Source of the DNA: Caldisericia bacterium
GTDB lineage: Bacteria; Caldisericota; Caldisericia; JAAYUI01
Length of the DNA: 64,000 nucleotides
Reading direction: 5' to 3'
Assembly (NCBI GenBank): GCA_963674785.1
Contig: OY771555.1
Coordinates: forward strand, 2,080,001 to 2,144,000
A model generated the notes under the pieces. The model had not been told where the DNA came from and did no database searches. It was given only the letters and a program-made list of their open reading frames with translations. Position numbers and translations under genes: made by a program. Positions within the stretch are counted from its first letter, which is position 1. Every line of letters begins with the position of its first letter. This document shows, piece after piece, positions 57,190-59,752 of this stretch.

Positions 57190-57747
57190 TTGAACACAAT
57201 AAAAGAGATGATTAAACGACCCTTCACATCGTTTGGAATATCTGTCATTGGAGTAATGACAGCCATGGCGATTATTGTTACAAGGTTCTTATCATATTTT
57301 CCAGTACAACATATTCGAGTCGACCCAGCTGGTCCTGCAATAATAATGATGGCTGGGATGTTTCTTGGACCAATCGGAGGAGCACTCGTTGGAGGTTTAT
57401 CTGACATAGTGGGAATACTCATTTTTAACCCAACACCAGGAGCCTGGAACCCATTAATCTTTTCGGGTCAGGTAGCTTATGGATTTGTCGCAGGTCTACT
57501 CTTCATGAAAAAATGGAATCCAAAAGACTCAAAGAGCGTTTTCCAGATCATTACAACTGTTGCCTCAGCACAATTGGTTGGCTCCACACTAATCACTCTT
57601 GGCGTTTGCTTTCTATATGGATTACCTTTTGTGGGAACATTTTTGACGAGATTGTCAATGCAACCTTTATTTATTGGCTTATATGCAATGATCTGTATTT
57701 TGGTAGTCCAACCTGTCGAATCAATCCTTCCATGGAGTAGAAAATAA
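57190..57747 (+). CDS. ECF transporter S component (FolT-like)
   Basis: Hydrophobic protein; AGMFLGPIGGALVGGLSDIVG motif. Confidence 0.75.
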   Translation: MNTIKEMIKRPFTSFGISVIGVMTAMAIIVTRFLSYFPVQHIRVDPAGPAIIMMAGMFLGPIGGALVGGLSDIVGILIFNPTPGAWNPLIFSGQVAYGFVAGLLFMKKWNPKDSKSVFQIITTVASAQLVGSTLITLGVCFLYGLPFVGTFLTRLSMQPLFIGLYAMICILVVQPVESILPWSRK

Positions 57748-58154
57748 TGAAAGTTATTCTTAAAAATAAACGTTGCATGTGACCAGCCTGTGCCTTACAG
57801 GTAGAGGAATCGGTTCGATTCTTAAATGGTGTTGAGAAGGTGGAAAAGCTCCTTTTTGGAGCATTTGAAATTGCTTTTGATGATCAAGCAGTTAAGGTTT
57901 CTGAACTTGAAAGTCGAATGTCAATCGCAGGATTTCCTCCGGAGGATGAAATGAGAGTAGAATTATCAGTTCCTGGAATTATGTGTGAAGTTTGTGCTGG
58001 AAAAGTCAAAGATAATCTATCAGTACTTTCAGGTATTGAAACAGTCAATATAAACATAAAAAATAAAACTGTAGCAGTCGATTTCGACAAATCAAAATTG
58101 ACTGTTGACGATATCAAAAATAAACTCTCAGAGATTGGTTATCCAGCAGATTAA
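57747..58154 (+). CDS. Tandem heavy-metal-associated (HMA) domain protein, probable selenoprotein (UGA at codon 12)
   Basis: ATG 57747 overlaps the upstream TAA. It reads MKVILKNKRCM-TGA(57780-57782)-PACALQVEESVRFLNGVEKV and continues in frame into ORF 57840..58154, whose second HMA has GIMCEVC. Confidence 0.8.
57805..57823 (+). promoter_or_regulatory. Candidate bacterial SECIS hairpin
   Basis: AGGAATCG-GTT-CGATTCTT stem-loop; G-first apical loop about 30 nt after the UGA. Confidence 0.55.
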
Positions 58155-59500
58155 CTAGAGTAACTGGTTACCTTTTGGGCACCAATTGAATATGTGTGGT
58201 CAACATATAATTTAACGAACTTTTTTGTGTCTGATATTGTCCTAAAACATGACCTTCCAGACATAGTGCTATTTTGATGAAGTGCTTGAGCAACACATCC
58301 GCCCCCACAAATTGGGAGGAGAACACAATTTTTTTCTGCGCATTCAAGGATTTTTTGTTTTCCTCCTGCCAACCAATTTTTCTCTTTTTTGGTATCAAAG
58401 AATGATTTGCCGTTTATATTTCCTACGCAAAAAGTCTGGTTATTGATATGCTCCCAACAATGATTTATCTCACCTTTTGGCCCAATTGCAAAAAACCCTT
58501 TTGAGTATGCCCCACACAGCATTGGAGCAATCAAGTACTTGAAATAACTTCTTTTATCTCCACCACAGAATCCATTTTCAACAATCTTTTGCGTCCACTG
58601 ACCAATCTCTGAAAAATACTTTTTACTTGATATACAATCAACCTCATACTTCTCGGAGCTCTCTGTCATTTTGGTTATTGGATAGGTATAAACAGATAGA
58701 TTCCTGAGATTTGATAAACCTTCTTTTTTCAAATCGTCCAGTAACTCATCAATTGAGCCTTCATTTTCTGAATCAACATTAATTCTTATTTCTATGTTTT
58801 TGATTCCAATATCTACAGCCTTTTTTATCCCCGTTATTACATCTGAGTATGATGCAGATCCATCTGAATATGGTCTCTCCTTGTTATGAAATCTTTTTGC
58901 TCCATGCAAGGTAACTTGCAATCGATTTAAACAAATTTCAGAATGTAGTCTTTCAAGTTCCTTTTCAATAAGAGATCCATTTGAAATTATTCCCCAATAC
59001 TGATTGATATCTGGAAAAGCATTATCAATGAATTTCTTTAAATCTATGAAATATTCAGGATACATTAGTGGTTCACCACCATAGCAATTGATGGTAATCT
59101 TCTTGACATCCAACCTAACAACTTGATCTTTAATGAAATCCTTGAGCCTATTAAAGGACTCTTGACTTATTGGTTCAATGTTGGTCCGACTTTCATAACA
59201 ATATGGGCAGCCAAAATTACAATCCATTGATAGCGCAAAAACAATATCAAGTGTCCCGGGGTTTTCAAATCTATTCAAAAATCTCTCAACAACCCATTTT
59301 TTTTCATCAAAACCGTCATCAACAAGAAAACCGGTCTTTTTTAAGTCAGCCAAAATATTTAAGTTCGAATGAAATCGATCTTCTTCAATAGCCCTAACAA
59401 CTTCATTCGATAAAATAATCACAGAGCCAGAAAGTGTTGAAAAAAGAATCATATTCTCATTATTATATTTGACCTTCAATAAGTAATTTGTAAATCTCAT
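58151..59500 (-). CDS. Radical SAM/SPASM peptide maturase
   Basis: CNFGCPYC, YGGEP, SPASM CGA..GPKGEINHC...CAEKNCVLLPICGGGC...C; RRE-like N-terminal extension; GGAGGAG RBS before ATG 59500. Confidence 0.9.
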   Translation of the reverse strand: MRFTNYLLKVKYNNENMILFSTLSGSVIILSNEVVRAIEEDRFHSNLNILADLKKTGFLVDDGFDEKKWVVERFLNRFENPGTLDIVFALSMDCNFGCPYCYESRTNIEPISQESFNRLKDFIKDQVVRLDVKKITINCYGGEPLMYPEYFIDLKKFIDNAFPDINQYWGIISNGSLIEKELERLHSEICLNRLQVTLHGAKRFHNKERPYSDGSASYSDVITGIKKAVDIGIKNIEIRINVDSENEGSIDELLDDLKKEGLSNLRNLSVYTYPITKMTESSEKYEVDCISSKKYFSEIGQWTQKIVENGFCGGDKRSYFKYLIAPMLCGAYSKGFFAIGPKGEINHCWEHINNQTFCVGNINGKSFFDTKKEKNWLAGGKQKILECAEKNCVLLPICGGGCVAQALHQNSTMSGRSCFRTISDTKKFVKLYVDHTYSIGAQKVTSYSS

Positions 59501-59517
59501 TGCTCCTCCACTAAAAT

Positions 59518-59547
59518 ACTGGGGTGGAAACATGTTTCCACCCCAGT
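59518..59547. repeat. Perfect 30-bp palindrome between precursor and maturase
   Basis: ACTGGGGTGGAAACA|TGTTTCCACCCCAGT. Confidence 0.95.
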
Positions 59548-59560
59548 CCCCAACATTAAC

Positions 59561-59752
59561 CTACTCCATCGTGCTACCATTTTGCCAGCATCTGTAGTTC
59601 GGGCATCCACATAGCTCCATCTGATTTGGATCAAAAACCTGTTGATCCATCCAAACTACTCTAAGCTCCGGAATCAACTCCATTATCTCTGGATCCACCT
59701 TTGACTGATCCAAAGACACCTTAATTGAGTCTGGGTTGTGTTCGTATGGCAT
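59561..59752 (-). CDS. Putative RiPP precursor peptide (63 aa)
   Basis: Strong GAGGAGGT RBS; acidic leader-like region; C-terminal CGCPNYRCWQNGSTME; directly upstream of the rSAM/SPASM gene. Confidence 0.75.
   Translation of the reverse strand: MPYEHNPDSIKVSLDQSKVDPEIMELIPELRVVWMDQQVFDPNQMELCGCPNYRCWQNGSTME

Follow-up and report, generated by a model that had tools for sequence, protein, structure and literature searches.

Here, we describe a putative selenoprotein gene at positions 57747-58154 of a 64,000-nucleotide stretch of DNA (hereafter the window) from an uncultured Caldisericia bacterium, whose genome (G000) is a single contig (C1) of 2.23 Mb with 39% G+C, the window covering positions 2080001-2144000 of that contig. 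Read through one in-frame TGA, the locus would encode a free protein of two HMA domains, in which selenocysteine (Sec, U) takes the place of the first ligand cysteine of domain 1 and domain 2 carries the usual pair of cysteines. From the comparative evidence presented below, we consider it very likely (probability about 0.88) that this is a genuine, so far unannotated selenoprotein gene. Coordinates are window positions on the (+) strand unless stated otherwise.

Reading frame, decoding apparatus and conservation of the TGA

Under translation table 11, the open reading frame (ORF) at this site runs from 57840 to 58154 (+) with a GTG start and a product of 104 aa. An ATG in the same frame at 57747-57749 shares its first base with the TAA (57745-57747) that ends the preceding 185-aa ORF, forming a TAATG junction, and the single in-frame stop between this ATG and the GTG at 57840 is the TGA at 57780-57782, which forms codon 12. 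Reading the TGA as U yields a 135-aa protein with the motifs C10-M11-U12-P13-A14-C15 in domain 1 and I-M-C80-E-V-C83 in domain 2. An earlier reading of the locus, made from the sequence alone (hereafter the sequence-only reading), had proposed an upstream ATG coupled to the preceding stop, a lone TGA at the first-Cys position of the domain 1 HMA motif, and a 135-aa two-domain product with UxxC followed by CxxC; read-through translation bears out each of these proposals. The features of the locus are as follows.

57747..58154 (+), full putative selenoprotein ORF: 135 codons plus a TAA stop, with its ATG within the TAATG overlap
57780..57782 (+), UGA codon 12, probably read as Sec: same codon in 7/7 orthologues
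57805..57823 (+), hairpin resembling a selenocysteine insertion sequence (SECIS): 5' arm 57805-57812, loop GTT 57813-57815 (the Val23 codon), 3' arm 57816-57823
57747..57944 (+), domain 1, residues 1-66, predicted divergent HMA domain with U12 and C15: weak Pfam HMA match, AlphaFold2 fold
57963..58142 (+), domain 2, residues 73-132, canonical HMA domain with C80-x-x-C83: PF00403, 69.8 bits
57787..57801 (+), second hairpin CCTGT/GCCTT/ACAGG: present in the window, not conserved
57190..57747 (+), upstream FolT-family energy-coupling factor (ECF) transporter S component, translationally coupled: TIGR04518 and Pfam ECF_trnsprt

The apparatus for decoding UGA as Sec is complete in the window genome, where all four of the genes that the sequence-only reading had proposed to look for (selA, selB, selC, and selD) are present. 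Matches to selA (444.3 bits), selB (317.4 bits against a cut-off of 242.25 bits, covering model positions 2-579 of 581), and selD (261.5 bits, with one in-frame TGA) all lie above their curated cut-offs, and a tRNA-SeC with anticodon tca is found at genome positions 1784782-1784873, 64 nt after the selB match. The selD gene (G000:C1:175799-176710 (+)) is itself of the Sec type, its TGA at 175829 standing in the context G-C-A-G-U-E with a hairpin (TGGGGGC/CGGGA/GCTCTCA) downstream. Among the stops of the 1,333 ORFs of at least 200 aa across the genome, TAA accounts for 608, TAG for 363, and TGA for 362; TGA is therefore an ordinary stop codon and the code is not reassigned, in agreement with what had been noted for the rest of the window.

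Contigs assembled from four sequencing runs of three studies were compared with positions 57190-58154. The contig of one run, possibly the one from which the assembly was made, is identical over the region; in a second sample from that study, a contig spanning 57680-57830 shows 0 differences; and a third study, of sludge, contributes a piece at 57716-57810 with 1 difference, the position of which is not listed. In an independent study, one run yielded a contig spanning 57619-58154, whose 12 differences all fall at position 57845 or beyond, so that the TGA is unchanged. Sequencing error at the TGA is thus excluded at the level of contigs.

Searching 41 related genomes with the read-through protein recovered full-length matches in 3/3 other genomes of the window's genus (g1), with 53-60% identity over residues 1-135 and exactly one in-frame TGA each. 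In all four same-genus genes, the TGA occupies the identical codon within R-C-M-U-P-A-C-A. Residues K2, V3, L5, K6, N7, R9, C10, and M11 before the TGA and P13, A14, C15, A16, V19, and V23 after it are invariant in the genus. Differences among these four genes at codon positions 1/2/3 number 7/8/33 over codons 2-11 and 42/26/53 over codons 13-31; the former pattern, upstream of the TGA, is the signature of a translated frame.

In a sister genus (g3, three genomes), domain 1 has its own gene, 68-69 codons long, with the motif W-A-U-P-[N/A]-C and a TGA at the aligned codon; the stop of this gene, likewise a TGA, overlaps the start codon (ATG) of a second gene, a Cys-HMA gene that corresponds to domain 2 (two overlapping genes at L020:1286-1689, L019:1289-1695, and L022:1292-1692). 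A further genus (g2, four genomes, loci L034-L037) has only one ordinary 69-aa Cys-HMA gene at the same locus. The locus thus takes three forms in three sister genera, with Sec-HMA and Cys-HMA fused (g1), encoded by two genes overlapping at an ATGA junction (g3), or represented by a single Cys-HMA (g2). An in-frame TGA in g2 was considered as a possible Sec codon and rejected, as it lies upstream of the real start of the single Cys-HMA gene. The four fused genes of g1 and the three split genes of g3 constitute our set of seven orthologues. Two expectations of the sequence-only reading consequently stand for the window's genus and not beyond it: the extra cysteine of C-M-U-x-x-C is present there but absent from g3, and the fused tandem architecture is found there but is not fixed, since g3 encodes the domains as separate overlapping genes.

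A profile of domain 1 searched against 93 Caldisericota genomes gave 7 strong matches (E 2e-34 to 1.4e-29) with one TGA each, the next-best match being a Cys domain 2 at E 2.3e-9. HMMER against 1.84 billion representative proteins returned 864 at E <= 0.001 and none at <= 1e-30; among the matches fetched, only P0006 and the 46-aa P0018 are shortened members of the family, while P0134 resembles a domain 2 homologue and six further proteins are of the generic Cys HMA kind. Neither the 93 genomes of the phylum nor this HMMER search yielded an orthologue of domain 1 with Cys. Homologues had been expected to show the TGA at codon 12, alternating with Cys: the TGA is indeed at the same codon in 7/7, but alternation was not seen among the orthologues. 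Cysteine does stand at the Sec-equivalent position in domain 2, in the single HMA of g2, in the HMA domains of ATPases, and in Cys tandem-HMA proteins, all of them paralogous or distant. A scan of metagenomes found one locus, in which the 96 nt around the TGA are identical to genome G002, and a scan of genome collections matched the three same-genus genomes only.

In a collection of 5.8 billion proteins, 6/6 database entries of the family are 103-119 aa long and begin 3' of the TGA; the window's own entry (P0002) has 104 aa and lacks the Sec motif. The annotation error therefore appears systematic for the family, all six entries found being N-terminally shortened with the Sec motif lost.

The hairpin downstream of the UGA

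Downstream of the UGA, a hairpin is formed by AGGAATCG (57805-57812), the loop GTT (57813-57815), and CGATTCTT (57816-57823), with the loop G 30 nt after the A of the UGA. We aligned, without gaps, the 60 nt from the TGA onward in the seven genes, such that columns 26-33 pair with columns 37-44. Paired cells number 48/56 (85.7%), against a mean of 65.9% in shuffled alignments, and 0/500 shuffles reach the observed value, although these statistics overstate independence, as the 7 sequences come from two related genera. Six slid controls gave 27-55% paired, and in a further control comprising 11 paralogous Cys-HMA domains, the same columns after the first Cys codon were paired in 25/88 cells (28%). 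Two-sided, compensatory changes affect 4/8 pairs of the hairpin (11 cells). The same helix was recovered independently by RNAalifold, and the isolated hairpin has a folding energy of -6.8 to -10.0 kcal/mol in 7/7 sequences. An outer helix also drawn by RNAalifold (columns 3-5 with 49-51) was set aside as uninformative, consisting of the letters of invariant Pro/Gly codons.

The stems have entirely different sequences in different lineages, reading GGAATCG/CGATTCY in three genomes, GCGCG/CGCGC in G002, GACCC/GGGTC in G005 and G009, and TGGCCCG/CGGGTCA in G007. In G002, the three compensated pairs also alter residues, from E-S...F to G-A...A; since these changes replace amino acids while restoring the pairing, they show selection on the RNA over the protein. 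With pairing restored even at the cost of amino acid replacements, the hairpin offers a neat, small-scale case of a coding sequence constrained by RNA structure. Alignment positions G34 and T35 are invariant in the 7 genes, lie within the invariant Val23 codon, and are the first two bases of the loop where the loop has 3 bases; G005 and G009 have a wider loop, CGUGA, with G second.

The rule applied by bSECISearch is a spacing of about 16-37 nt after the UGA with a G in the first two positions of the loop. The hairpin of this family has a G within the first two loop positions, the loop being GUU, GUC-containing, or CGUGA, and in the window that loop lies 30 nt after the UGA. A stem-loop beginning its loop with G at this distance had been proposed by the sequence-only reading, and it is present, covaries, and is kept in 7/7 genes. 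A selenoprotein review describes the bacterial SECIS as a stem-loop immediately 3' of the UGA. Taken together, the comparative data make the hairpin at 57805-57823 a well-supported candidate for the SECIS element of the gene. The same reading had also pointed to a second hairpin (57787-57801) right after the UGA, which did not hold up as an element: it is present in the window, but 62.9% of cells are paired against 60.6% in shuffled alignments (169/500 shuffles reach the observed value), one pair is kept in just 1/7 sequences, and there is no covariation.

We propose that translation would start at the ATG overlapping the stop of the ECF S-component gene, and that at UGA codon 12 the mRNA hairpin, with its stem of 7-8 bp and G-U first in the loop, would recruit SelB and Sec-tRNA(Sec) such that Sec would be inserted in place of termination. 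Both the contact between SelB and the hairpin and the insertion of Sec itself are inferred here by analogy with the established bacterial mechanism.

Several points weigh against a selenoprotein. There is no orthologue with Cys at codon 12, the Cys/Sec pair being seen only in comparison with paralogous or distant HMA domains. In the window's 61-nt context, the minimum-free-energy fold is a competing structure, the hairpin being optimal only when its own stretch is folded in isolation. A scan of 57600-58300 against Rfam at E <= 10 gave no SECIS family; the three matches that it did give (a snoRNA, a Brucella sRNA, and an miRNA) were discarded as chance matches. By sequence, the window's domain 1 scores 16.1 bits with the Pfam HMA model (residues 12-33), below the gathering score of 24.8. 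To these may be added the relatedness of the seven sequences noted above.

Were the TGA a plain nonsense codon, the product would be the 104-aa protein starting at GTG 57840 and the upstream part a decayed remnant. This is how gene callers annotate the family (104 aa for P0002, 103-119 aa for the other five entries), and TGA is a common stop in the window genome. Yet the supposed remnant is kept in frame in 7/7 species at 34-65% identity and, in the four same-genus genes, changes before the TGA with the third-position bias (7/8/33) expected of coding sequence; the TGA falls exactly on a metal-ligand position; the 104-aa product would start partway through predicted strand 2; and g3 keeps domain 1 as a gene of its own, which is sensible only if read through the TGA. 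We regard this explanation as largely refuted and very improbable. An extremely improbable alternative, in our judgment, is that the TGA terminates a leader peptide of 11 codons and that the hairpin acts as an attenuator or translational control element for the downstream HMA gene instead of a SECIS. A short ORF followed by a hairpin does resemble a leader-peptide arrangement, and alternative folds do compete in the 61-nt context, but codons 13-31, which would be noncoding in such an arrangement, specify both the conserved P-A-C-A motif and the first helix of the HMA fold, and no run of T follows the hairpin. Moreover, three hairpin positions carry the compensatory, residue-changing substitutions of G002 (E/S/F to G/A/A), and because these alter the encoded residues, the pattern is the one expected of an RNA structure embedded in a translated region.

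Fold, known relatives and possible function

The product would be a 135-aa cytoplasmic protein of two HMA (ferredoxin-like) domains, of which the second is recognized readily by sequence and the first mainly by predicted structure. Domain 2 matches Pfam PF00403 at 69.8 bits against a cut-off of 24.8 bits and reaches 62 bits with TIGR00003 ("copper ion binding protein"), equal to the 62-bit cut-off of that model. For domain 1, Pfam HMA matches are weak in 7/7 sequences (best E 2.5e-5). AlphaFold2, run on the 7-row alignment, predicts two beta-alpha-beta-beta-alpha units (pLDDT 88.6, pTM 0.78), with a strand at residues 2-6, a helix at 13-24, strands at 29-35 and 39-44, and a helix at 51-60 in domain 1, and a strand at 68-74, a helix at 81-91, strands at 97-103 and 108-114, and a helix at 120-129 in domain 2. 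In the model, U12 and C80 each stand directly before helix 1, the classical position of the HMA ligand. Foldseek against the PDB placed tandem HMA pairs on top, namely, the N-terminal domains of Bacillus subtilis CopA (2RML, 1P6T) and domains 5-6 and 3-4 of ATP7B, followed by MerP and CopZ with root mean square deviations of 0.8-0.9 over 66-68 columns for one domain. The fold of domain 1 is thus predicted to be HMA-like even though its sequence falls below the threshold. In domain 1, U12-x-x-C15 would offer a selenol and a thiol at the loop and the first turn of the helix, the soft-metal site of HMA domains; in domain 2, the usual C80-x-x-C83 would do so with two thiols.

Sec in HMA domains is already established, both as UxxC in P1B-ATPases and as UxxU in NF041115, and the sequence-only reading was right that such domains have precedent: tables in two selenoproteome reviews include a family named "Putative mercuric transport protein," and NCBIfam holds models for others. 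Sec P1B-type ATPases (TIGR01525) share with the window protein the replacement of the first Cys of the HMA CxxC by Sec, and UxxC in an HMA domain implies soft-metal handling in anaerobes, common to both; their HMA domain, however, is fused to a pump, whereas the window protein is a free protein of 135 aa (68 aa for the domain 1 gene of g3) without an ATPase domain. The nearest curated selenoprotein model by score is NF041115 (UxxU_metal_bind, "metal-binding (seleno)protein," formerly "putative mercuric reductase"), which likewise describes a small standalone selenoprotein of HMA fold, but one with UxxU, two Sec, and a single domain of 74 positions, in contrast to UxxC and one Sec here; the window protein scores 55.4 bits with it through domain 2 and 18 bits through domain 1, against a cut-off of 95. 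The best sequence models overall are those of CopZ of the Bacillus subtilis/Enterococcus hirae type, with scores again short of the cut-offs (NF033795, 78.7 versus 91 bits; NF033794, 70.1 versus 95 bits). CopZ has a single domain and Cys only, while the window protein has two domains, one Sec, and other residues flanking the ligands (C-M-U-P-A-C). By predicted structure, the top match is the tandem HMA pair CopAab of B. subtilis CopA mentioned above. The MerT/CopZ fusion-like heavy metal transport selenoprotein (NF045683) joins a small membrane transporter to an HMA domain, a logic similar to that of a membrane-protein gene followed by an HMA gene; here, however, a MerT domain is absent, the membrane protein encoded upstream is an ECF S component with a gene of its own, and the score is 31.8 bits (HMA part only) against a cut-off of 375.

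No description of a free tandem Sec/Cys HMA chaperone was found in the literature searched, though supplementary tables outside that search may list one, and the string "Caldiseric" has 0 occurrences in a 2026 selenoproteome review. The gene would add a free, CopZ-like UxxC protein to the selenoprotein catalogue, and would do so for Caldisericota; with Sec in HMA domains already documented, it opens no new category. The fused, split, and Cys-only arrangements of the three sister genera place Sec and Cys HMA domains next to one another within one gene family, a natural comparison set that lends itself to studying what a metal-binding site gains from selenium.

As the most likely function, at odds that we would put at about even, we propose a CopZ-type Cu(I) chaperone passing Cu(I) to the N-terminal HMA domain of a CopA-type P1B-ATPase; we infer both the metal and the CopA partner from family resemblance. 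Sec would offer a more nucleophilic ligand of low pKa in a sulfidic, anaerobic habitat. Binding of other thiophilic metals, e.g., Hg, Ag, or Cd, is possible but doubtful. The only P1B-ATPase of the window genome matches the copper model TIGR01511 (507.5 bits versus 397) and has one Cys-HMA domain and no in-frame stop. The genomic setting tells against the copper-chaperone model, which leaves the ECF S-component neighbor unexplained: the gene is not adjacent to copA, which lies 1.3 Mb away, and its conserved neighbor is a folate-family ECF S component. No established model accounts for the pairing of a FolT-family ECF S component with an HMA protein.

Two other roles would leave the protein a genuine selenoprotein and change its task. 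Its job may be tied to the FolT-family S component, as a cytoplasmic acceptor or protector for an imported metal-containing or thiol-reactive substrate, which we consider unlikely. In 8/8 relatives' loci compared, across three genera, the HMA gene(s) come immediately after the ECF-S gene, and in 7/7 selenoprotein-carrying genomes the stop of the ECF-S gene either overlaps the HMA start or falls within the HMA gene by no more than 23 nt. The distance to copA is compatible with such a tie, as is the single EcfT gene of the window genome, a shared module encoded elsewhere. Operon neighbors alone are nevertheless weak evidence, the S component matches the folate family (TIGR04518, 65.4 bits versus a cut-off of 60), and we know of no link between folate and HMA proteins; no fused ECF-S/HMA protein was found in a word-limited search, which gave 7 close relatives only, and g2 has an ordinary single Cys-HMA at the same position. 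In its strongest form, also distinctly unlikely, the selenoprotein would be a dedicated Sec-based acceptor to which the ECF-type importer directly hands over a soft metal or a substrate that contains metal or is organometallic; if true, ECF transporters, HMA chaperones, and selenium would be linked for the first time, and the "folate-family" S component would have a different substrate. Quite improbable, finally, is a redox role in which U-x-x-C would act as a selenol/thiol oxidoreductase center instead of a metal ligand. Most bacterial UxxC selenoproteins are redox proteins according to tables of two selenoproteome reviews, but the fold predicted here is that of HMA and not thioredoxin-like, the motif sits at the canonical metal-binding loop, and the known Sec-HMA cases are filed under metal handling in a review.

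Neighboring genes and a further selenoprotein candidate

The gene order, conserved across the family, is CsaB, ComF, the ECF S component, the HMA gene(s), and then MraY (on the opposite strand) and an aminopeptidase. In G000 and G003 only, mraY is separated from the HMA gene by a gene for a radical-SAM/SPASM peptide maturase (58151-59533 (-)), for which CefB "Cys-every-fifth" is the best-scoring model (205.6 bits, cut-off 600 bits). Directly upstream of the maturase gene on the same strand, a 63-aa ORF (59561-59752 (-)) with a Cys-containing C terminus could encode its precursor peptide.

A genome-wide scan for motif plus hairpin gave 66 candidates; among the 9 extracted, only one looked credible, in addition to the present gene and selD. 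This second, apparently unannotated selenoprotein has 777 aa (G000:C1:1767639-1769972 (+), equivalent to L074:640-2973), with an N-terminal signal-like segment, the motif E-P-E-U-T-K-C-P-P (UxxC) at codon 51, Ig-like/BACON domains, and a C-terminal Cu_amine_oxidN1 domain. Its family has one in-frame TGA in 11/11 genomes (G000 and 10 relatives, at 34-68% identity), and the loop of a hairpin, ACCTACT/GTT/AGTAGGT, begins 21 nt after the first base of the TGA.

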